Shown piece after piece: positions 8,556-61,195 of a DNA stretch of 64,000 nucleotides. Under the pieces are notes generated by a model. The model ran no database searches, was not told the origin of the DNA, and saw nothing but the letters and a program-made list of their open reading frames with translations. The number at the start of each line of letters is the position of its first letter. The stretch's first letter is position 1. This DNA comes from Eledone cirrhosa (taxonomy: Eukaryota). The DNA lies in NCBI GenBank assembly GCA_964016885.1, contig OZ024765.1:5456001-5520000 (forward strand), in the 5' to 3' direction. The position numbers and the translations under genes were made by a program.

Positions 8556-9121
8556 CCCTTTACCATTTACATTACTCTATATATACTATTGTATTTTCAC
8601 GGTAAAGGCTTTACCTCACATAATATCTCACATAACATTTACATTACTCTATATATACTATTGTATTTTCATGGTAAAGGCTTTACCTCACATAATATCT
8701 CACATAACATTAACATTACTCTATATATACTATTGTATTTTCACAGTAAAGGCTTTACCTCACATAATATCTCACATAACATTAACATTACTCTATATAA
8801 ACTATTGTATTTTCACAGTAAAGGCTTTACCTCACATAATATCTCACAACATTCACATTACTCTATATATACTATTATATTTTCATGGTAAAGGCTTTAC
8901 CTCACATAATATCTCACATTACTCTATATATACTATTGTATTTTCACAGTAAAGGCTTTACCTCTCATAATATCTCACATAATATCGAATCTATGAAATT
9001 TTGGAAGTATTTATTTTGAGAACAATACCTTAACATCAGTTTGAGTGACCAGTTACAGCCAGTTTCAACAGCAGAAGGTAGAGAATTCTGGCCGGTTTTG
9101 GCCAGTTTGAACATTAAAGGG
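8556..9121 (+). mobile_element. piggyBac-type non-autonomous element (MITE) with ~6 internal 72-bp satellite units
   Basis: TTAA (8552-8555) | CCCTTTA...TAAAGGG | TTAA (9122-9125); unique 3' segment shared with 41605-41743. Confidence 0.85.
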
Positions 9122-20623: not shown

Positions 20624-21240
20624 TCAGCATGTACCCATGGGAGGTCGGGTACCCTGTATTACTGCGTGACGCCAGAAGTCACGGTCGTGTGTCATTGACT
20701 TTGAGAGGTGTAGTTGGGTAAGGTCGGCTTTTATCACCTCATCCCAAGTCATCTTGGGTCTCCCCACTCCGCGGTTTCCATCAACTTCTAGTGCTCTGCA
20801 CCTTTTTATGCAGCTGTCATCCTTCATACGCATCACATGTCCATACCAGCGTAACCGCCTCTCCTGCACGCAGCATTTGATTCCTCTTATGCTCAGTCTC
20901 TCTCTCAATTCATTTATGCTTTGTCGTTCACGTATATTACTGTTACACATCCATCGGAGCATGCAGGCTTCGTTTCTCTCTAATCTACGTAAGTCTTCCA
21001 CCTTCAGCGCCCAGGTCTCACTACCATGCAACATCGCTGTTCGGATACACGCATCATACAGTCTGCCTTTCATTCTGAGGGAGAAGCCTTTTGCAGCTAG
21101 CAGTGGTAGTAGTTCCCTAAACTTCTTCCATCCCGTTCTTACCCTAGTTATTGTACTTTCTGAGCACCCACCTCCGTTGCTAATTCGGTCACCTAGGTAG
21201 CAGAAGCTGTCTACTGTTTCTACAGGGCCCTCCCAGAGAT
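20624..21240 (-). pseudogene. 5'-truncated RTE-clade LINE, C-terminal part of the RT ORF
   Basis: VETVDSFCYLGD...RVRTGWKKFREL...KGRLYDACIRTAMLHGSETW...RRLRWYGHVMRM...GRPKMTW, diagnostic of RTE-type LINEs. Confidence 0.9.
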
Positions 21241-21511
21241 TGGTGGTACTTGTTTCCTGTGGCTGTTTGCTTGCTGTTTCAGCACAGCTGCTGCATGTAT
21301 ATATATATATGTATATATATATATATGTATATATATTTAAGTATATATATATATGTATATATATGTATATATATGTATATATAATGTAGGAGGTGAGTTT
21401 TATTGTAGTACAATAAAGCAATGCAGATATCGGATAAGAAGCACTCTACAGTTTGTAGGACTGGAGTATACATAATATAAGATCAAAAGATGGTTAAAGG
21501 AGTTCCATGTA

Positions 21512-21578
21512 TTTTATTATGCGCATTTCAAAAACAAACATCATCATGCAATAATATTTGTGTTTTCATCAGATAAAA
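21512..21578 (-). ncRNA. Type I hammerhead ribozyme (family B)
   Basis: Reverse complement of 21706-21772. Confidence 0.8.
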
Positions 21579-21705
21579 CAGGAGAACATGATATGAAGGC
21601 TAAAAAACACTTGTGGATAGTGCAGTTTTAAATCAACATATCATATGTTGATTTAAAACTGCACTATCCACAAGTGTTTTTTAGCCTTCATATCATGTTC
21701 TCCTG

Positions 21706-21772
21706 TTTTATCTGATGAAAACACAAATATTATTGCATGATGATGTTTGTTTTTGAAATGCGCATAATAAAA
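21706..21772 (+). ncRNA. Type I hammerhead ribozyme (family B)
   Basis: TTTTAT CTGATGA [stem II AAACACAAA...TTTGTTTTT] GAA ATGCGCAT A^ ATAAAA; palindromic stem III; predicted cut after 21766. Confidence 0.8.
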
Positions 21773-21815
21773 TACATGGAACTCCTTTAACCATCTTTTG
21801 ATCTTATATTATATG

Positions 21816-21846
<31 letters not shown>

Positions 21847-21875
21847 TTAAGTATATATATATATGTATATATATG

Positions 21876-21950
<75 letters not shown>

Positions 21951-22546: not shown

Positions 22547-22751
22547 GGAAAAAGTAAGACCCCGACGGCAGAGCTCAAGCCATCTCGACGGCTATTTCTG
22601 GACTAACATCGAGTCCAGAAATAGCCGTCGAAACGACGGCTTGAGCTCTGCCGTCGGGGTCTTACTTTTTCCTATTTCCCACTCTACTCCCCTAAGTATT
22701 GAGTACTTTGGTGCGTTTTGGTCCATCTGGTTCCTTACCACAATTCCTTTG

Positions 22752-22755
<4 letters not shown>
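22546..22755. repeat. Short inverted-repeat element between (TA)n tracts
   Basis: AGGAAAAAGTAAGACCCCGACGGCAGAGCTCAAGCC...GGCTTGAGCTCTGCCGTCGGGGTCTTACTTTTTCCT; a fragment recurs at 53587-53609. Confidence 0.8.
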
Positions 22756-25450: not shown

Positions 25451-25536
25451 GTAATAATAATAAATTTGAAGACTAAAATCCAAAGAGGGCTCGATAAGGA
25501 TAAATATATATCAAATATATAAGAACCGTAGAGCAA

Positions 25537-26049
25537 ATATTTATTAAAATAACAGATTAAAGTTTAAGCAAAGAATCGCTGCTTTCACCCTTAACAGGAT
25601 CTTCTGAAACTAAAAAAAATCAATCTGTGAACGCAGACGTAAATATTTCAAAAACGTTGCAACCAAAGTAAGACAGGAATTGTTCTCATCGATCCACATA
25701 ATGACATATATTCTTCGTTTTTCCATTCATTGCCAGAGAACGTCTCCATGAACCACCTAATAGAATATTAGTTTACGACTTCATTTATACCATAAACGTG
25801 GTTTTGTCTTTGCGTGTAAATGTTCTCACCACTCCAAATAACAACGTATTATCTTCGTTTTTTTCCATTCATTGCCAGGGAACGTCTTCACAAACCAAAG
25901 TATCGTCTTCCTGTTTTCCTTCGGTTGCAACGTTTTTCGAAATATTTACTTCTGTGTTCACAGATTGATTTTTTAGTTTCAAAAGATCTCGTTAAGGGTG
26001 AAAGCAGCGATTCTTTGCTTAAACTTTAATCTGTTATTTTAATAAATAT
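25537..26049. mobile_element. MITE-like element with ~145-bp imperfect TIRs
   Basis: 25537-25680 is the reverse complement of ~25908-26049; internal direct repeat at 25711 and 25852; TSD not resolved. Confidence 0.7.
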
Positions 26050-26803: not shown

Positions 26804-26835
<32 letters not shown>

Positions 26836-26840
<5 letters not shown>

Positions 26841-26922
26841 GCATACTCCAGTCCCACAAACTGTAGAGTGCTTCTTATCCGATATCTGCATTGCTTTATT
26901 GTACTACAATAAAACTCACCTC

Positions 26923-26928
<6 letters not shown>
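26836..26928 (+). mobile_element. Family B 3' tail only (5'-truncated, no HHR) within (TA)n
   Basis: Reverse complement of 21384-21475; ends CCTCCTACAT(AT)n. Confidence 0.8.
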
Positions 26929-27674: not shown

Positions 27675-28135
27675 CATAACATTTACATTACTCTATATAT
27701 ACTATTGTATTTTCATGGTAAAGGCTTTACCTCTCAATATCTCACATAACATTTACATTACTCTATATATACTATTGTATTTTCATGGTAAAGGCTTTAC
27801 CTCACATAATATCTCACATAACATTTACATTACTCTATATATACTATTGTATTTTCACAGTAAAGGCTTTACCTCACATAACATTTACATTACTCTATAT
27901 ATACTATTGTATTGTCACAGTAAAGGCTTTACCTCATATAATATCTCACATAACATTTACATTACTCTATATATACTATTATATTTTCACAGTAAAGGCT
28001 TTACCTCACATAATATCTCACATAACATTTACATTACTCTATATATACTATTATATTTTCACAGTAAAGGCTTTACCTCACATAATATCTCACATAATAT
28101 CAAATCTATGAGATTTTGAAAGTATTTATTTTGAG
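27675..28135 (+). repeat. 72-bp satellite (~6 units) plus start of the MITE's unique 3' segment; truncated copy
   Basis: Same unit, followed by ATCTATGAGATTTTGAAAGTATTTATTTTGAG. Confidence 0.9.
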
Positions 28136-30199: not shown

Positions 30200-30246
<47 letters not shown>

Positions 30247-30476
30247 TTAGAAACACACAGATACATGCGGACACACACATATATACATGAATGCATCCGC
30301 ACCCAACTGTGAGTTAAGGGTGCCAACTTCACCGATGTTGCTCAATGAATGACTGGGACAGACCAATTCAGTTTGAACCAGACTGAACCAGTATCAGAGT
30401 TAAAAATACATTATGAAGAGAGAAGAAACATTTAGATATAATTAGTAATAAAATGTATCATACCTAAACTGTTCCT

Positions 30477-30573
30477 AAATTCCTCGACTACGTAGTTTCG
30501 TGGCATAAACAAAAACAATATATCAAAGATATAGAGTCCTTGCGAGGTCTGCCGACTTATCAAGAGGATACCT
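30477..30573 (-). ncRNA. Type I hammerhead ribozyme, U3-A8 core (family A, copy 1)
   Basis: Reverse complement of 32749-32845. Confidence 0.8.
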
Positions 30574-31067
30574 CATTTTACTAGTCTCAAGAACGCGTCT
30601 ACACGACGTGAGAAAGAATCCCAAAAGGCGGAGGGGGAGATAGTCACGCGATATAACGGTCGAGAAACAGAGCTAAGCCTCCTATAACCACGAAAAAAAT
30701 ACCACGGAGGCGGAGGGGGCATTCATATCGAGGCCGTAGAAGAGGTAGTGAAGAAGGCGAGAAGTATGAGTAATGGAAGCTTTCCAGTTGTCCCCACACT
30801 TCAAAGATTGCTCGACCAGAGGGAGTTATTAATACATTTAGAAACACACAGATACATGCGGACACACACATATATACATGAATGCATCCGCACCCAACTG
30901 TGAGTTAAGGGTGCCAACTTCACCGATGTTGCTCAATGAATGACTGGGACAGACCAATTCAGTTTGAACCAGACTGAACCAGTATCAGAGTTAAAAATAC
31001 ATTATGAAGAGAGAAGAAACATTTAGATATAATTAGTAATAAAATGTATCATACCTAAACTGTTCCT

Positions 31068-31164
31068 AAATTCCTCGACTACGTAGTTTCGTGGCATAAA
31101 CAAAAACAATATATCAAAGATATAGAGTCCTTGCGAGGTCTGCCGACTTATCAAGAGGATACCT
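31068..31164 (-). ncRNA. Type I hammerhead ribozyme, U3-A8 core (family A, copy 2)
   Basis: +591 from copy 1. Confidence 0.8.
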
Positions 31165-31658
31165 CATTTTACTAGTCTCAAGAACGCGTCTACACGACGT
31201 GAGAAAGAATCCCAAAAGGCGGAGGGGGAGATAGTCACGCGATATAACGGTCGAGAAACAGAGCTAAGCCTCCTATAACCACGAAAAAAATACCACGGAG
31301 GCGGAGGGGGCATTCATATCGAGGCCGTAGAAGAGGTAGTGAAGAAGGCGAGAAGTATGAGTAATGGAAGCTTTCCAGTTGTCCCCACACTTCAAAGATT
31401 GCTCGACCAGAGGGAGTTATTAATACATTTAGAAACACACAGATACATGCGGACACACACATATATACATGAATGCATCCGCACCCAACTGTGAGTTAAG
31501 GGTGCCAACTTCACCGATGTTGCTCAATGAATGACTGGGACAGACCAATTCAGTTTGAACCAGACTGAACCAGTATCAGAGTTAAAAATACATTATGAAG
31601 AGAGAAGAAACATTTAGATATAATTAGTAATAAAATGTATCATACCTAAACTGTTCCT

Positions 31659-31755
31659 AAATTCCTCGACTACGTAGTTTCGTGGCATAAACAAAAACAA
31701 TATATCAAAGATATAGAGTCCTTGCGAGGTCTGCCGACTTATCAAGAGGATACCT
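31659..31755 (-). ncRNA. Type I hammerhead ribozyme, U3-A8 core (family A, copy 3)
   Basis: +591 from copy 2. Confidence 0.8.
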
Positions 31756-32249
31756 CATTTTACTAGTCTCAAGAACGCGTCTACACGACGTGAGAAAGAA
31801 TCCCAAAAGGCGGAGGGGGAGATAGTCACGCGATATAACGGTCGAGAAACAGAGCTAAGCCTCCTATAACCACGAAAAAAATACCACGGAGGCGGAGGGG
31901 GCATTCATATCGAGGCCGTAGAAGAGGTAGTGAAGAAGGCGAGAAGTATGAGTAATGGAAGCTTTCCAGTTGTCCCCACACTTCAAAGATTGCTCGACCA
32001 GAGGGAGTTATTAATACATTTAGAAACACACAGATACATGCGGACACACACATATATACATGAATGCATCCGCACCCAACTGTGAGTTAAGGGTGCCAAC
32101 TTCACCGATGTTGCTCAATGAATGACTGGGACAGACCAATTCAGTTTGAACCAGACTGAACCAGTATCAGAGTTAAAAATACATTATGAAGAGAGAAGAA
32201 ACATTTAGATATAATTAGTAATAAAATGTATCATACCTAAACTGTTCCT

Positions 32250-32346
32250 AAATTCCTCGACTACGTAGTTTCGTGGCATAAACAAAAACAATATATCAAA
32301 GATATAGAGTCCTTGCGAGGTCTGCCGACTTATCAAGAGGATACCT
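32250..32346 (-). ncRNA. Type I hammerhead ribozyme, U3-A8 core (family A, copy 4)
   Basis: +591 from copy 3. Confidence 0.8.
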
Positions 32347-32748
32347 CATTTTACTAGTCTCAAGAACGCGTCTACACGACGTGAGAAAGAATCCCAAAAG
32401 GCGGAGGGGGAGATAGTCACGCGATATAACGGTCGAGAAACAGAGCTAAGCCTCCTATAACCACGAAAAAAATACCACGGAGGCGGAGGGGGCATTCATA
32501 TCGAGGCCGTAGAAGAGGTAGTGAAGAAGGCGAGAAGTATGAGTAATGGAAGCTTTCCAGTTGTCCCCACACTTCAAAGATTGCTCGACCAGAGGGAGTT
32601 ATTAATACATTTAGAAACACACAGATACATGCGGACACAGGAGGCTTAGCTCTGTTTCTCGACCGTTATATCGCGTGACTATCTCCCCCTCCGCCTTTTG
32701 GGATTCTTTCTCACGTCGTGTAGACGCGTTCTTGAGACTAGTAAAATG

Positions 32749-32845
32749 AGGTATCCTCTTGATAAGTCGGCAGACCTCGCAAGGACTCTATATCTTTGAT
32801 ATATTGTTTTTGTTTATGCCACGAAACTACGTAGTCGAGGAATTT
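32749..32845 (+). ncRNA. Type I hammerhead ribozyme, U3-A8 core (family A, copy 5)
   Basis: AGGTATCCTC TTGATAA GTCGGCA...TGCCAC GAA ACTACGTAGT C^ GAGGAATTT; stem I TCCTC/GAGGA; GUC cut after 32836. Confidence 0.82.
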
Positions 32846-33339
32846 AGGAACAGTTTAGGTATGATACATTTTATTACTAATTATATCTAAATGTTTCTTC
32901 TCTCTTCATAATGTATTTTTAACTCTGATACTGGTTCAGTCTGGTTCAAACTGAATTGGTCTGTCCCAGTCATTCATTGAGCAACATCGGTGAAGTTGGC
33001 ACCCTTAACTCACAGTTGGGTGCGGATGCATTCATGTATATATGTGTGTGTCCGCATGTATCTGTGTGTTTCTAAATGTATTAATAACTCCCTCTGGTCG
33101 AGCAATCTTTGAAGTGTGGGGACAACTGGAAAGCTTCCATTACTCATACTTCTCGCCTTCTTCACTACCTCTTCTACGGCCTCGATATGAATGCCCCCTC
33201 CGCCTCCGTGGTATTTTTTTCGTGGTTATAGGAGGCTTAGCTCTGTTTCTCGACCGTTATATCGCGTGACTATCTCCCCCTCCGCCTTTTGGGATTCTTT
33301 CTCACGTCGTGTAGACGCGTTCTTGAGACTAGTAAAATG

Positions 33340-33436
33340 AGGTATCCTCTTGATAAGTCGGCAGACCTCGCAAGGACTCTATATCTTTGATATATTGTTT
33401 TTGTTTATGCCACGAAACTACGTAGTCGAGGAATTT
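33340..33436 (+). ncRNA. Type I hammerhead ribozyme, U3-A8 core (family A, copy 6)
   Basis: +591; cut after 33427. Confidence 0.8.
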
Positions 33437-33930
33437 AGGAACAGTTTAGGTATGATACATTTTATTACTAATTATATCTAAATGTTTCTTCTCTCTTCAT
33501 AATGTATTTTTAACTCTGATACTGGTTCAGTCTGGTTCAAACTGAATTGGTCTGTCCCAGTCATTCATTGAGCAACATCGGTGAAGTTGGCACCCTTAAC
33601 TCACAGTTGGGTGCGGATGCATTCATGTATATATGTGTGTGTCCGCATGTATCTGTGTGTTTCTAAATGTATTAATAACTCCCTCTGGTCGAGCAATCTT
33701 TGAAGTGTGGGGACAACTGGAAAGCTTCCATTACTCATACTTCTCGCCTTCTTCACTACCTCTTCTACGGCCTCGATATGAATGCCCCCTCCGCCTCCGT
33801 GGTATTTTTTTCGTGGTTATAGGAGGCTTAGCTCTGTTTCTCGACCGTTATATCGCGTGACTATCTCCCCCTCCGCCTTTTGGGATTCTTTCTCACGTCG
33901 TGTAGACGCGTTCTTGAGACTAGTAAAATG

Positions 33931-34027
33931 AGGTATCCTCTTGATAAGTCGGCAGACCTCGCAAGGACTCTATATCTTTGATATATTGTTTTTGTTTATG
34001 CCACGAAACTACGTAGTCGAGGAATTT
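33931..34027 (+). ncRNA. Type I hammerhead ribozyme, U3-A8 core (family A, copy 7)
   Basis: +591; cut after 34018. Confidence 0.8.
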
Positions 34028-34521
34028 AGGAACAGTTTAGGTATGATACATTTTATTACTAATTATATCTAAATGTTTCTTCTCTCTTCATAATGTATTT
34101 TTAACTCTGATACTGGTTCAGTCTGGTTCAAACTGAATTGGTCTGTCCCAGTCATTCATTGAGCAACATCGGTGAAGTTGGCACCCTTAACTCACAGTTG
34201 GGTGCGGATGCATTCATGTATATATGTGTGTGTCCGCATGTATCTGTGTGTTTCTAAATGTATTAATAACTCCCTCTGGTCGAGCAATCTTTGAAGTGTG
34301 GGGACAACTGGAAAGCTTCCATTACTCATACTTCTCGCCTTCTTCACTACCTCTTCTACGGCCTCGATATGAATGCCCCCTCCGCCTCCGTGGTATTTTT
34401 TTCGTGGTTATAGGAGGCTTAGCTCTGTTTCTCGACCGTTATATCGCGTGACTATCTCCCCCTCCGCCTTTTGGGATTCTTTCTCACGTCGTGTAGACGC
34501 GTTCTTGAGACTAGTAAAATG

Positions 34522-34618
34522 AGGTATCCTCTTGATAAGTCGGCAGACCTCGCAAGGACTCTATATCTTTGATATATTGTTTTTGTTTATGCCACGAAAC
34601 TACGTAGTCGAGGAATTT
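34522..34618 (+). ncRNA. Type I hammerhead ribozyme, U3-A8 core (family A, copy 8)
   Basis: +591; cut after 34609. Confidence 0.8.
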
Positions 34619-34683
34619 AGGAACAGTTTAGGTATGATACATTTTATTACTAATTATATCTAAATGTTTCTTCTCTCTTCATA

Positions 34684-35140
<457 letters not shown>

Positions 35141-35846: not shown

Positions 35847-35852
<6 letters not shown>

Positions 35853-36360
35853 CGTAGTTAATAAAGCCACAACAATGCAGAGGGAAATCTCGAGGTAGGA
35901 AGTGAAAGATAGATAGGAAAAACAGGTGAAAGTGAAAATTGAGAGAGACAAAGATGAAAACAAAAACAAAACAAAGGTAGAAGGGTTACCGTAGTGGAGA
36001 TTTAATCCCAATATTTCGGGCTCACGCCCATCAACGGGGGAAAAACGGGGGAAAAACGGCATTCCTGTCTTAACGACATCACAACTTTCTCCGCTTGGCC
36101 TGTTCCCCCCCTTTTGGAACTTTCCCCCGTTGATGGGCGTGAGCCCGAAATATTGGGATTAAATCTCCACTACGGTAACCCTTCTACCTTTGTTTTGTTT
36201 TTGTTTTCATCTTTGTCTCTCTCAATTTTCACTTTCACCTGTTTTTCCTATCTATCTTTCACTTCCTACCTCGAGATTTCCCTCTGCATTGTTGTGGCTT
36301 TATTAACTACGTATTTTACACATTTCACAATGCTTCAAGCAAACTTTAACACCCTCTTAT
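35847..36360. mobile_element. Head-to-head inverted element (family D) between (TA)n tracts, with a degenerate HHR-like motif in each arm
   Basis: 35847-36044 is the reverse complement of ~36121-36318; TCCC CCGTTGA TGGGCGTGAGCCC GAAATATT GGGA. Confidence 0.7.
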
Positions 36361-39485: not shown

Positions 39486-41743
39486 CCCTTTAGAATTTAC
39501 ATTACTCTATATATACTATTGTATTGTCACAGTAAAGGCTTTACCTCACATAATATCTCACATAACATTTACATTACTCTATATATACTATTGTATTTTC
39601 ACAGTAAAGGCTTTACCTCACATAATATCTCACATAACATTTACATTGCTCTATATATACTATTGTATTTTCACAGTAAACGCTTTACCTCACATAATAT
39701 CTCACATAACATTTACATTACTCTATATATACTATTGTATTTTCACAGTAAAGGCTTCACCTCACATAATATCTCACATAACATTTACATTGCTCTATAT
39801 ATACTATTGTATTTTCACAGTAAACGCTTTACCTCACATAATATCTCACATAACATTTACATTACTCTATATATACTATTGTATTTTCACAGTAAAGGCT
39901 TTACCTCACATAATATCTCACATAACATTTACATTACTCTATATATACTATTGTATTTTCACAGTAAAGACTTTACCTCACATAATATCTCACATAACAT
40001 TTACATTACTCTATATATACTATTGTATTTTCACAGTAAAGGCTTTACCTCACATAATATCTCACATAACATTTACATTACTCTATATATACTATTGTAT
40101 TTTCACAGTAAAGGCTTTACCTCACATAATATCTCACATAACATTTACATTACTCTATATTTACTATTGTATTTTCACAGTAAAGGCTTTACCTCACATA
40201 ATATCTCACATAACATTTACATTGCTCTATATATACTATTGTATTTTCACAGTAAAGGCTTTACCTCACATAACATTTACATTACTCTATATATACTATT
40301 GTATTGTCACAGTAAAGGCTTTACCTCACATAATATCTCCCATAACATTTACATTACTCTATATATACTATTGTATTTTCACAGTAAAGGCTTTACCTCA
40401 CATAATATCTCACATAACATTTACATTACTCTATATATACTATTGTATTTTCACAGTAAAGGCTTTACCTCACATAATATCTCACATAACATTTACATTA
40501 CTCTATATATACTATTGTATTTTCACAGTAAAGGCTTTACCTCACATAATATCTCACATAACATTTACATTACTCTATATATACTATTGTATTTTCACAG
40601 TAAAGACTTTACCTCACATAATATCTCACATAACATTTACATTACTCTATATATACTATTGTATTTTCATAGTAAAGGCTTTACCTCACATAACATTTAC
40701 ATTACTCTATATATTCTATTGTATTTTCACAGTAAAGGCTTTACCTCACATAATATCTCACATAACATTTACATTACTCTATATATACTATTGTATTTTC
40801 ACAGTAAAGGCTTTACCTCACATAATATCTCACATAACATTTACATTACTCTATATTTACTATTGTATTTTCACAGTAAAGGCTTTACCTCACATAATAT
40901 CTCACATAACATTTACATTGCTCTATATATACTATTGTATTTTCACAGTAAAGGCTTTACCTCACATAACATTTACATTACTCTATATATACTATTGTAT
41001 TGTCACAGTAAAGGCTTTACCTCACATAATATCTCCCATAACATTTACATTACTCTATATATACTATTGTATTTTCACAGTAAAGGCTTTACCTCACATA
41101 ATATCTCACATAACATTTACATTACTCTATATATACTATTGTATTTTCACAGTAAAGGCTTTACCTCACATAATATCTCACATAACATTTACATTACTCT
41201 ATATATACTATTGTATTTTCACAGTAAAGGCTTTACCTCACATAATATCTCACATAACATTTACATTACTCTATATATACTATTGTATTTTCACAGTAAA
41301 GACTTTACCTCACATAATATCTCACATAACATTTACATTACTCTATATATACTATTGTATTTTCACAGTAAAGACTTTACCTCACATAATATCTCACAAA
41401 ACATTTACATTACTCTATATATACTATTGTATTTTCACAGTAAAGACTTTACCTCACATAATATCTCACATAACATTTACATTACTCTATATATACTATT
41501 GTATTTTCACAGTAAAGACTTTACCTCACATAATATCTCACATAACATTTACATTACTCTATATATACTATTGTATTGTCACAGTAAAGGCTTTACCTCA
41601 CATAATATCGAATCTATGAGATTTTGAAAGTAGTTATATTGAGAGCAATACCTTAACATCAGTTTGAGCGACCAGTTACAGCCAGTTTCAACAGAAAAGG
41701 TAGAGAATTCTGGCCGGTTTTGGCCGGTTTGAACACTAAAGGG
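39486..41743 (+). mobile_element. piggyBac-type MITE with ~30 internal 72/60-bp satellite units
   Basis: TTAA (39482-39485) | CCCTTTAG...CTAAAGGG | TTAA (41744-41747); empty-site paralog at 43866. Confidence 0.9.
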
Positions 41744-47960: not shown

Positions 47961-48360
47961 ATGTAGGAGGTGAGTTTTATTGTAGTACAATAAAGCAATG
48001 CAGATATCGGATAAGAAGCACTCTACAGTTTGTGGGACTGGAGTATACATAATATAAGATCAAAAGATGGTTAAAGGAGTTCCATGTATTTTATTATGCG
48101 CATTTCAAAAACAAACATCATCATGCAATAATATTTGTGTTTTCATCAGATAAAACAGGAGGACATGATATGAAGGCTAAAAAACACTTGTGGATGTTGA
48201 TTTAAAACTGAACTATCCACAAGTGTTTTTTAGCCTTCATGTCATGTCCTCCTGTTTTATCTGATGAAAACACAAATATTATTGTATGATGATATTTGTT
48301 TTTGAAATGCGCATAATAAAATACATGGAACTCCTTTAACCATCTTTTGTTCTTATATAT
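47961..48360. mobile_element. HHR family B element, second head-to-head copy in (TA)n; HHRs at 48089-48155 (-) and 48255-48321 (+)
   Basis: Same sequence as 21384-21812 but inversion junction at ~48195. Confidence 0.85.
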
Positions 48361-48393
<33 letters not shown>

Positions 48394-48494
48394 CGATAAT
48401 AACAGCACATGCATATAGGAGAAGAATGAACTCTGATGTTAATTTAACCGTGAAACCCCTCCTGGGTCCTGTATTGATCACTTTTTTGTTTTCC

Positions 48495-48537
48495 ATGCCC
48501 TTGATAAGCCCATTCCGGGTGAAACGTACGTAGGCAC
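48495..48537 (+). ncRNA. Compact hammerhead motif with U3-A8 core
   Basis: TGCC(C) TTGATAA GCCC ATTCC GGGT GAA ACGTACGT A^ GGCA; palindromic stem III; stem I needs a 1-nt bulge. Confidence 0.6.
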
Positions 48538-48683
48538 ACTGTTATATAAACATGTTCTAACGGTTTTAAACTCTTTGTATTCATTTCTTTTATATATATG
48601 TATATATATATACTATCCTGGGATAACTTGAACCATTAAGGTATATTATCCTTGGTTATGTCAAATATTTATAAAACACTTTG

Positions 48684-48745
48684 TATTTTATCTGATGATA
48701 GCGTACCAAAGTTTTTGGTACCCTTGAAATATATATAATAGAATA
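48684..48745 (+). ncRNA. Type I hammerhead (family C)
   Basis: TATTTTAT CTGATGA [GTACCAAA/TTTGGTAC] GAA ATATATAT A^ ATAGAATA. Confidence 0.65.
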
Positions 48746-48902
48746 AATATGGTTTTATAAATATAGTTTCCATTTATTTAATATCATTGTATATTATACT
48801 TCAGAAAATCTGTTGAGTGCTCTGAATCAGTTATAAACATTTATATTTGTTGAATTACCAACAAATTGAATATCCCTTCTGCTTATATATACATATATAT
48901 AT

Positions 48903-49801: not shown

Positions 49802-51334
49802 CATGCATATGTCTATCCACATATATATATATATATATATATACATACATGCATATGTCTATACACACACATATATATATATATATACACATACATGCAT
49901 ATGTCTATATACATGTGTATTTATACATATTCATATACAGAATTACTCATAATACACACATATACATACACTCACATACACACAGATATGCACACACAAA
50001 CACCTGCTTACATACATACACGCACTCATACAAAATGCATTAACACACATACATATACACATGTACTTATATATATATATATATATACATATATACATGG
50101 TGGCTGCCAACTCGTTTTCGAGTACGGCCACTACTTTATATCCATGTAGGAGAACCCCTACCGATGCGCTGAACGAGTGTGACTTTTTAGTCCAGCCAGC
50201 GACTTGAAAACTCTGGTACAAACACTACACTTGTGACAATTATTGACACATAGTGCTGGGCCCATGGTACCATGTGACGACAAGTGCAGAGAGATCTCCA
50301 GATATAAAGCAATGCCTGTGCCGTGAAGCTTTTATAGTGAGCAAAGGCACTGCACAAAGCCAGTCCCACTCTCTTAACCAAGATGTTATTTACCAAAAAG
50401 AAGAACAAGTCAACATCATTGGATACCATCAGGGTTGCAGGTGTTATATCAGAGTTTTCCTTCTCCTAGAATTCTGCCTTGACAAAGGCTAAGGGGTCAT
50501 CTCTCCCAGTGATATTGGATGGCCATTGACTCTTAAGAGCTCCTTTGCCCTTTGACAGGTTTTGTTTTTAGTCCTGCAGGATGTCCAAAGTCACCCTCCT
50601 CACCAAGAAACGTTGGTGGGGTTGCCAGTTTAGTCGCCAACGACCCGACCATGAGACAGGTTGTACTGGGATACATGTTACCAGTAGCACCAACTGGTGA
50701 CCTATACATATATACATACGTACATACATACATATACATGTACTTATATATATATATATATATATACATACGTACATATACATATACACATGTACTTATA
50801 TATATATATACATATATACATATGTACATACATACATACATATACATATACACATGTACTTATATACATATATACATACATACATACATACATACGCACA
50901 TATACATATACACATGTACTTATATATATATATATATATACATACATACGTACATATACATGTACTTATATATATATACATATGTACATATACACATGTA
51001 CTTATATATACATATATACATACGTACATACATACGTACATATATATATATACATATATACATATATACACGTACATACACGTACACATATGTACATAGA
51101 CACACATACATGTACAGCATCATCTACTTAGGGTTAGAGAACCCAGCTGAAATCCAACTTAAAACCCTGATCCCGCCCTTCACTATCCCCTCTTTATGGT
51201 TGGGTTGTCAACATTAAAAAGGGGTCTTGAAGATTTCTTAAGGTTCACAACAGCAGCAGCAGCAGCAGTAACAACAACAACACCAACATTAACAACAACT
51301 ATAAAAATAACATCTACAACACCAACAATAACAT

Positions 51335-53575: not shown

Positions 53576-53991
53576 CGGTCGATACTGCTTGAGCTCTGCC
53601 GTCGGGGTCAAATATATATATATATATATATATATGTCAAATATATATAGGTGTGCCTGTGTGTGTATATATATATATATATAGGTGTGTGTGTGTGTGT
53701 GTGCCTGTGTATATATATATATATATATAAATATAGGTGTGCCTGTGTGTGTGTATATATATATATATATAGGTGTGTGTGTGTGTGCCTGTGTGTATAT
53801 ATATATATATATATAGGTGTGCCTGTGTGTATATATATATATATATATACGTGTGTGTGTGTGTGCCTGTGTGTATATATATATATATATATAGAGGTGT
53901 GTGTGCCTGTGTGTATATATATATATATATATATAGGTGTGACTGTGTGTATATATATATATATATATATATAGGTGTGTGTGTGTGTGCC

Positions 53992-60609: not shown

Positions 60610-60788
60610 CAACAGTTTAATTTAAATAAACCGTTATCTTTTCAACCTTTCGGACACTCATTTGCATACTCCCTCATAACTTTGTATCACCCCCAATAAA
60701 TGTAATATCTCCACTATCCAGGAAGCTCCAACCATTAAGGTTGTCTTTTTTTCCGGGTATGTCAATATTCATTTATAAAACAAATCTG

Positions 60789-60854
60789 TATTTTATCTGA
60801 TGAAAGCGCACCATAATTTGCCTTGGTTGCCCTTGAAATATGTATAATAAAATA
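60789..60854 (+). ncRNA. Type I hammerhead (family C)
   Basis: TATTTTAT CTGATGA AAGCGCACCA...TGGTTGCCCTT GAA ATATGTAT A^ ATAAAATA; flanks homologous to 48630-48765. Confidence 0.72.
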
Positions 60855-60873
60855 AATATGGTTTTATAAATAT

Positions 60874-60937
<64 letters not shown>

Positions 60938-60939
<2 letters not shown>

Positions 60940-61195
60940 GTAGGAGGTGAGTTTTATTGTAGTACAATAAAGCAATGCAGATATCGGATAAGAAGCACTC
61001 TACAGTTTGTAGGACTGGAGTATACATAATATAAGATCAAAAGATGGTTAAAGGAGTTCCATGTATTTTATTATGCGCATTTCAAAAACAAACATCATCA
61101 TGCAATAATATTTGTGTTTTCATCAGATAAAACAGGAGAACATGATATGGAGGCTAAAAAACACTTGTGGATAGTGCAGTTTTAAATCAACATAT
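60938..61195 (-). mobile_element. HHR family B monomer in (TA)n; HHR at 61066-61132 (-)
   Basis: Matches the left arm of 21384-21642. Confidence 0.85.

Follow-up and report, generated by a model that had tools for sequence, protein, structure and literature searches.

Family B, a short repeat present at four loci in the 64,000-nucleotide stretch of repeat-rich animal DNA analysed here (the window), is by analogy with described elements likely a non-autonomous Penelope-like retroelement (PLE), i.e., a free pseudo-LTR (pLTR) carrying a predicted hammerhead ribozyme. When the twin-priming and self-priming readings of its palindromic copies are taken together, we consider a PLE-type non-autonomous element highly probable. 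The best explanation of the palindromes, which we favor by a modest degree of belief, is that a PLE enzyme supplied from another genomic locus introduces a nick into each strand of a TA tract and that a cDNA is primed at each of them. The monomer (258 bp; sense, window 61195->60938) served as the reference unit, and BLAST of this monomer against the window returned six strong matches, its own locus included; the others were 21641->21384 (257/258), 48195->47961 (232/235), 26833->26928 (94/96), 21643->21819, and 48194->48366. These matches bore out the four structural states claimed in the preliminary description, namely, a monomer, a tail-only copy, and two head-to-head palindromes. We number them copy 1 (palindrome 1), copy 2 (palindrome 2), copy 3 (monomer), and copy 4 (tail-only), with the following features:

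21384-21641, minus strand: full arm of copy 1, unit 1-258, 257/258 identity with the monomer
21384-21471, minus strand: tail of copy 1, unit 171-258, 88 bp, unpaired
21642, no strand: centre of palindrome 1, a single unpaired base
21643-21812, plus strand: inverted arm of copy 1 without the tail, unit 1-170, 0 mismatches with the left arm over 170 bp
26833-26928, plus strand: tail-only copy, unit 163-258, between two TA runs, 94/96 identity
47961-48195, minus strand: tail-bearing arm of copy 2, unit 24-258, 232/235 identity with the monomer, hammerhead core at 48149
48194-48363, plus strand: inverted arm of copy 2 without the tail, unit 3-170, hammerhead core at 48261
60938-61195, minus strand: monomer, unit 1-258, between TA runs, predicted hammerhead 61134-61064, predicted cut after 61072

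The unit is non-coding, and its last 88 bp (unit 171-258) form the tail. All four loci terminate in CCTCCTACAT followed by a TA run, and TA runs flank both sides of every copy, as had been proposed; such runs make up 5% of the window by a strict definition and 11% by a loose one. The TA run that follows CCTCCTACAT is one T out of phase in copies 1 and 3 relative to copies 2 and 4. Both second arms end at unit position 170, in agreement with the claim that the inverted arm lacks the ~88-bp tail. A perfect palindrome had been described at 21384-21812; a palindrome is present there, but its perfect part is confined to 21472-21812 (170+1+170 bp, arms with 0 mismatches), while 21384-21471 is the unpaired tail. 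Head-to-head inversion of the 5' part was thus found at 2/4 loci, and the 3' tail is one-sided in both palindromes. None of the four loci is tandem, no arm continues past unit 1 into 258, and four of the five body-bearing arms begin at unit 1-3, which is unrelated to the predicted ribozyme cut site at 124. Copies 1 and 3 differ at a single position out of 258. On the strand of the left arm, the unpaired C at the centre of palindrome 1 (21642) is an additional G preceding unit 1, as might be expected had an RNA cap been copied, though this is speculation based on one base.

The arms of copy 2 overlap, being joined over a shared 2-bp AT. Unit 3-23 occurs in the right arm only and unit 171-258 in the left arm only. 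The right arm also carries a 2-bp AT insertion after unit 167 and five private substitutions; over unit 24-170, the arms differ by four of these plus the AT insertion, the fifth substitution lying at position 20. T57C is common to both arms of copy 2 and accounts for ~1/5 of depth at that site in the public sequencing run X1, while T185C is common to the left arm of copy 2 and the tail-only copy.

A further feature of copy 1, absent from the preliminary description and recognised in the present analysis, is a direct repeat that adjoins both ends of palindrome 1:

21303-21383, plus strand: left direct repeat, 81 bp, interrupted (TA)n, exact core 21312-21374
21813-21893, plus strand: right direct repeat, 81 bp, exact core 21822-21884

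The repeats show 78/81 ungapped identity with 63 bp exact, 81 bp being the best among the repeat lengths of 20-86 tried. The interruption motif TATATTTAAGTATATA occurs in the window at 21332 and 21842 only, and comparison of the flanks in inverted orientation gave merely 15 bp of plain TA. Of 87 control points placed in the window's other interrupted TA arrays, one had an exact match of at least 63 bp. Judging from the sequence, the 81-bp direct repeat is likely a long target-site duplication of palindrome 1, and it points to the TA tract predating the insertion. Unequal crossing-over in the microsatellite could also be a source of the repeat. The flanks of copies 2-4 showed plain TA matches only and no other direct repeat; a target duplication is readable at 1/4 loci, the flanks of the other three being too pure to judge.

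In LINE-1 twin priming, two target nicks each prime a cDNA, which produces a head-to-head inversion within a target duplication, and the two arms are mostly non-overlapping parts of one RNA. Family B is unlike LINE-1 in that its arms duplicate the same 147-170 bp. For twin priming of family B, we envisage that an uncleaved RNA with a fixed 5' end would be bound by PLE protein; cleavage by the monomeric hammerhead would be poor, as its helix III has 2 bp and a palindromic loop requiring another copy. The PLE protein, acting in trans, would nick the two strands of the tract 63-81 bp apart, the distance indicated by the direct repeat. Judging by the arm ends, one cDNA would start at the tail end (258), whereas priming of the other would occur near unit 170, at a TA-rich site inside the unit, and these separate start sites would place the tail on one arm only. 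The 3' ends of the two cDNAs would then join, either through a short stretch of AT homology or directly, to form the head-to-head palindrome, while a lone cDNA annealing to the TA target at unit 1 would yield a monomer and one annealing at the internal TA-rich site would yield a tail-only copy. Two start sites plus TA microhomology would thus explain all four states. That the repeat abutting the ends of copy 1 is direct, not inverted, suggests twin priming. In the experiments of PMC11167929, a PLE protein in purified form nicked both strands of AT-rich DNA and extended them, used RNA that had not been cleaved, and initiated reverse transcription at two internal RNA positions that delimit the tail. 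Against twin priming, the direct repeat is found at one locus and has three mismatches; the arms of copy 1 are identical and those of copy 2 share T57C, as fold-back or a single template predicts.

These last two observations favor self-priming, in which one cDNA of a non-autonomous PLE derivative (or an antisense template) folds back and is copied, with nicking or target annealing at the internal TA-rich site resolving the second end so that the tail remains one-sided. Junction palindromes of PLEs have been interpreted as products of self-priming (PMC3846280), and the weak 5' hairpin of the family B unit is consistent with it, as are two features of the wider window described below, i.e., the one-sided tail in 6/6 inverted structures and the 182-bp spacer of an unrelated 591-bp array, which goes with the tail-bearing arm. 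We nevertheless regard it as unlikely. In copy 2, the spacer belongs to the tail-less arm, the differences between the arms are all on one arm, and two of them are variants of other copies. Since each arm of copy 2 holds sequence that is absent from the other, simple fold-back cannot yield it; self-priming would need a later deletion together with one-sided mutation or conversion. A later central deletion could indeed be the source of the copy 2 junction. The nicking and extension of both strands in vitro (PMC11167929, in the portions accessible) also speaks against self-priming. With regard to the number of RNA templates, copy 2 leans toward two.

The layout of palindrome, one-sided tail, and (TA)n recurs in the window in four sequences unrelated to family B. 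These were found by scanning 46 TA-bounded segments of 60-1,500 bp, with the long array at 30243-34686 added separately. The layout is a head-to-head inversion in which one arm touches (TA)n and the other bears a tail. The tail is one-sided in all six long inverted structures examined in TA runs (five unrelated sequences), with lengths of 88, 88, about 158, 77, 41, and 90 bp. Tentatively, and with rather more doubt than conviction, we extend twin priming to all of them as one kind of integration, in which two microsatellite nicks ~60-80 bp apart would prime two cDNAs from two RNAs at two fixed starts, the cDNAs being joined head to head, and in which a single trans-acting machine would serve at least five unrelated short RNAs with or without a recognisable hammerhead. 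On this tentative reading, the miniature elements would document a missing step in the Penelope cycle.

The array at 30243-34686, itself in (TA)n, is built of a 591-bp unit repeated without change, with about 4.1 copies on one strand and 3.5 in the opposite orientation, around the 182-bp spacer. Each unit contains a type I hammerhead with a U3-A8 core variant, and a one-sided tail of about 158 bp is present; the array is a retrozyme-like tandem with the same ends as family B. A 206-bp element at 22547-22752 has a ~129-bp imperfect palindrome and a ~77-bp tail with TA runs on both sides; the scan found no hammerhead in it, and a short match to it lies at 53578-53609. At 35848-36357, a 510-bp element comprises two identical 196-bp arms, a central spacer, and a 41-bp tail, with TA on both sides and without a canonical hammerhead core. 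The 595-bp element at 25451-26045, also between TA runs, has 140-bp arms at 92% identity, a 90-bp tail on the left, and a 228-bp spacer with an internal direct repeat; its arms contain, by eye, a degenerate minimal hammerhead-like motif. Elsewhere in the window, we noted a 72-bp minisatellite in four arrays in both orientations (1-2409, 8564-8982, 27675-28097, and 39495-41609) and a short frame at 50161-50331 (minus strand) with a C2H2 zinc-finger match below the Pfam cut-off (E 6e-05).

The 591-bp array bears on another explanation, in which a tandem array of family B elsewhere would give rise to a 258-nt circular RNA and the loci in the window would be partial cDNAs of that circle. The array supplies an unrelated precedent, with tandem hammerhead units and the same ends. 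Size, low GC, and a type I hammerhead fit metazoan retrozymes (PMC7229834), and retrozyme families of this kind have abundant monomers of PLE origin (bioRxiv 10.64898/2026.07.22.740005). Such an origin is nonetheless quite improbable for family B, considering that 0/4 loci are tandem, that no arm crosses from unit 1 into 258, and that the starts of four of the five body-bearing arms at 1-3 are unrelated to the cut site. The joints listed for run X1 include no end-to-start joint either, which is weak evidence because the contigs are short and the reference is flankless. The still less probable view that the palindromes arose after insertion or during assembly, by back-to-back insertions, ectopic conversion, fold-back read chimeras, or a TA-targeting MITE, draws on the dense and palindromic TA tracts, the perfection of palindrome 1, and the apparently older right arm of copy 2, but the direct repeat encloses all of copy 1, the asymmetric layout recurs in five unrelated sequences, the arms of copy 2 differ, unlike those of a read chimera, and neither the monomer nor the tail-only copy has the terminal inverted repeats (TIRs) of a MITE.

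The predicted hammerhead spans unit 62-132 and is found in both arms of copy 1, where CTGATGA lies at 21712 and GAAA at 21755:

21510-21580, minus strand: predicted type I hammerhead in the left arm of copy 1, core at 21572, predicted cut after 21518
21704-21774, plus strand: predicted type I hammerhead in the right arm of copy 1, core 21712-21718, predicted cut after 21766

It comprises an 8-bp helix I, a 15-pair helix II, a palindromic helix III (ATGCGCAT), and an AUA triplet, and it possesses the type I consensus features C3-A9, G12-A14, A15.1-U16.1, an NUH triplet, and three helices. The hammerhead layout predicts cutting after 21766 (unit 124), the same position as given in the preliminary description. 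The ribozyme had also been called canonical, and its core is indeed intact, but an A-U pair replaces the conserved G-C at 10.1-11.1, helix II has 15 pairs, and no hammerhead model was among the Rfam matches listed. For the monomer, no hammerhead model was among the seven Rfam matches at E<=10, and for the window, the 150 of 294 matches listed were merely miRNA-like and other weak matches. Conservation of the core across copies had been set beforehand as a test, and we found it identical in 5/5 core-bearing arms. A gapped core pattern matched the window seven times, compared with no match in 100 shuffles; five of the matches belong to family B and two, at 48692 and 60797, to an older, related repeat, family C:

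48613-48765, plus strand: family C hammerhead repeat, older and related to B, U-U at 10.1-11.1, 79% identity to 60696-60874
60715-60875, plus strand: second copy of family C, separated by a TA run from the 3' end of the monomer, which it faces

Families B and C are alike in helix I, core context, and helix III. We aligned the four distinct sequences among the seven matches, the other three being equal to copy 1 over the hammerhead span. In this alignment, 92/96 cells were paired, and 8/26 pairs had changed on both sides, one of them in helix III. The covariation between B and C supports the predicted helices and does not amount to proof, because it involves two lineages and a structure drawn from those same sequences. 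Among 14 variable sites in run X1, two fall in helices, where both keep pairing, and none falls in the core, although the absence of core variants is not significant (P = 0.33). The hammerhead fold of the monomer is predicted to lie 5.6 kcal/mol above the MFE, and the helix III palindrome to pair with a second copy at -10.5 kcal/mol. Folding z-scores ranged from -0.3 to -1.7 for the monomer and the hammerhead, which is unremarkable. Metazoan PLE hammerheads typically have a small palindromic helix III and cleave poorly as monomers (PMC4209133). Both family C copies lie within 260 bp of a family B copy. Between copy 2 and family C, a single TA-bounded segment (48395-48590) with no second copy in the window has a hammerhead-like motif near 48511, with a U3-A8 core and a short helix II.

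Word matches to family B were present in 20 of 24 listed public sequencing runs, labelled as 16 organisms; no RNA run was among those listed with family B words. Four of the 24 (X1, X4, X7, and X22) were compared with the unit. Run X1 contained 3,873 family B contigs, of which 1,230 were at least 99% identical to the unit, 1,507 at 95-99%, 1,004 at 90-95%, and 132 lower; summed contig depth was not taken as copy number. From these numbers and identities, family B is large and of mixed age in the X1 organism. The claim of recent activity fits both the 1,230/3,873 contigs that are at least 99% alike and the single difference between copies 1 and 3. X4 and X7 yielded five contigs and one contig, respectively, both at trace depth, and X22 yielded none among 12,836,656 reads (about 1 in 100 of the run). 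Since X4 and X7 hold only traces and X22 none, a wide species range is unsupported.

Contigs of X1 also bear on the arms of copy 2 and on the inner end. A159T of the copy 2 right arm occurs in 36 X1 contigs and the AT insertion in 27, and the two are together on one X4 contig. X1 contigs leave the unit at 157, 167, and 175 (39, 10, and 32 contigs; among the six of 72 loose-end rows listed), the departure at 167 running into TA; the inner end is therefore recurrent. At unit 157, the 39 contigs pass into a different AT-rich stretch, possibly representing a subfamily with another 3' end. A total of 378 X1 contigs extend past the unit ends, and among the joints listed there was no end-to-start (258-to-1), tandem, or strand-change joint, weak evidence given the short contigs and flankless reference.

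A PLE partner with reverse transcriptase (RT) and GIY-YIG domains was sought in the window. None of 112 complex reading frames of at least 55 aa matched RT or GIY-YIG families in Pfam, nor did an earlier Pfam pass on 16 window frames, and pattern scans of viral contigs, metagenome contigs, and prokaryote genomes gave 0 matches. Since no such partner was found in the window, we infer PLE membership from other features of the family. At 20627-21292 (minus strand), next to the TA tract holding copy 1, 222 codons without interruption encode the C-terminal part of the RT of a non-LTR retrotransposon, and the named relatives of this fragment are in marine invertebrates at about 40-50% identity. We rejected it as the partner; it is of non-LTR type, and minus-strand translations beyond the TA tract show no continuation. 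In the monomer, a frame in the tail (60938-61027, minus strand) opens with ATG at unit 169 and runs exactly 30 codons to the 3' end. The frame resembles the beginning of a partner ORF, which is a lead only; the lone protein match of the peptide (E 3.4e-4) was to a repetitive protein and was judged spurious, so we did not adopt it as such a start.

The origin of the inverted repeats, one-sided tails, and microsatellite preference of PLEs has been named as unsolved, and their target duplications are often unreadable in microsatellites (both from the accessible text of PMC8557442). A short, young, variant-rich family with diagnostic substitutions and a readable, probable long target duplication could separate twin priming from self-priming by sequence alone, and arm-by-arm haplotypes across many copies would discriminate twin priming from the published self-priming model. 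A palindromic copy is predicted to fold, as RNA, into a 170-bp perfect hairpin with an MFE of -288 kcal/mol; if the palindromes are transcribed, such hairpins would probably give rise to small RNAs that act in silencing. Should the mechanistic claims fail, family B would amount to a PLE-type repeat of the ordinary sort in an animal genome rich in repeats. A literature search of titles and abstract openings, which covered few subscription papers and neither Repbase nor supplements, found no ORF-less pLTR palindromes with long duplications and no twin priming in PLEs. The inverted-pLTR/tail architecture is known; here it occurs without an ORF and with unusually readable traces of an unsolved step.

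The published features against which we classified family B are taken from the accessible portions of the papers cited. PLE insertions carry a 5' copy in inverted orientation and are tailed at one end (PMC3846280, PMC8557442), and PLEs are characterized by type I hammerheads, a small palindromic helix III, and AT or (TA)n targets (PMC3846280, PMC8557442, PMC4209133, PMC11167929), with a tail of 30-40 bp and a target duplication of 8-10 bp (PMC3846280, PMC8557442). The PLE architecture proposed earlier is therefore matched by the inverted head-to-head copy, one-sided tail, hammerhead, and (TA)n of family B but not by its lengths, as its 88-bp tail is two to three times the published length and its putative 63-81-bp duplication about eight times. 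Similarly, the description of the family as a non-autonomous PLE derivative stands with regard to layout and the lack of TIRs, whereas no partner was found in the window and the ribozyme is not strictly canonical. The TIRs of a DNA transposon were not found in the monomer or the tail-only copy, and the tail lies outside the inversion, which stops 88 bp short of one end; we accordingly rejected a MITE or DNA transposon. Nor did we assign family B to the non-LTR retrozymes, tandem units being present at 0/4 loci in the window.

Non-LTR retrozymes resemble family B in that they are 150-400 bp long, low in GC, and non-coding, have a type I hammerhead, occur as dispersed monomers, and are thought to be PLE-derived (accessible parts of PMC7229834 and bioRxiv 10.64898/2026.07.22.740005). 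However, they are defined by tandem hammerhead units, whereas family B is never tandem in the window and forms inverted pairs. Naiad and Neptune PLEs and non-autonomous Chlamys elements, e.g., MRC1, share with it the targeting of (TA)n or other microsatellites, tandem or inverted insertions, and non-autonomous pLTR-bearing derivatives; as far as PMC8557442 is accessible, Naiads are without canonical hammerheads, whereas the core of family B is intact, and Naiad/Neptune target duplications are mostly not discernible, whereas a probable one is readable in family B. Poseidon of Anolis carolinensis (PAc), in the accessible text of PMC11167929, has two apparent 3' ends delimiting the tail with a hammerhead upstream of them, AT-rich targets, and an uncleaved hammerhead kept in the inserted DNA, all as in family B. 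Its reverse transcription starts in an AC-rich stem-loop without target homology, whereas the inner end of family B is TA-rich and target-like, and PAc, unlike family B, is autonomous and tandem. The EN+ PLEs of Adineta vaga (Pen2a, Pen2, and Pen3a; PMC3846280; PMC8557442, accessible portions) differ in having an ORF, a second direct pLTR, a tail of 30-40 rather than 88 bp, and a duplication of 8-10 rather than 63-81 bp. Like family B, EN+ PLEs have a head-to-head inverted repeat (about 170-220 bp), a one-ended tail, unequal arms at the junction, a direct target duplication (a likely one in family B), and AT-rich targets, and solo pLTRs and mobilisation of pLTRs alone in trans have been reported for them (PMC3846280, PMC8557442, same portions). 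By analogy with these elements, family B works like a PLE pseudo-LTR.
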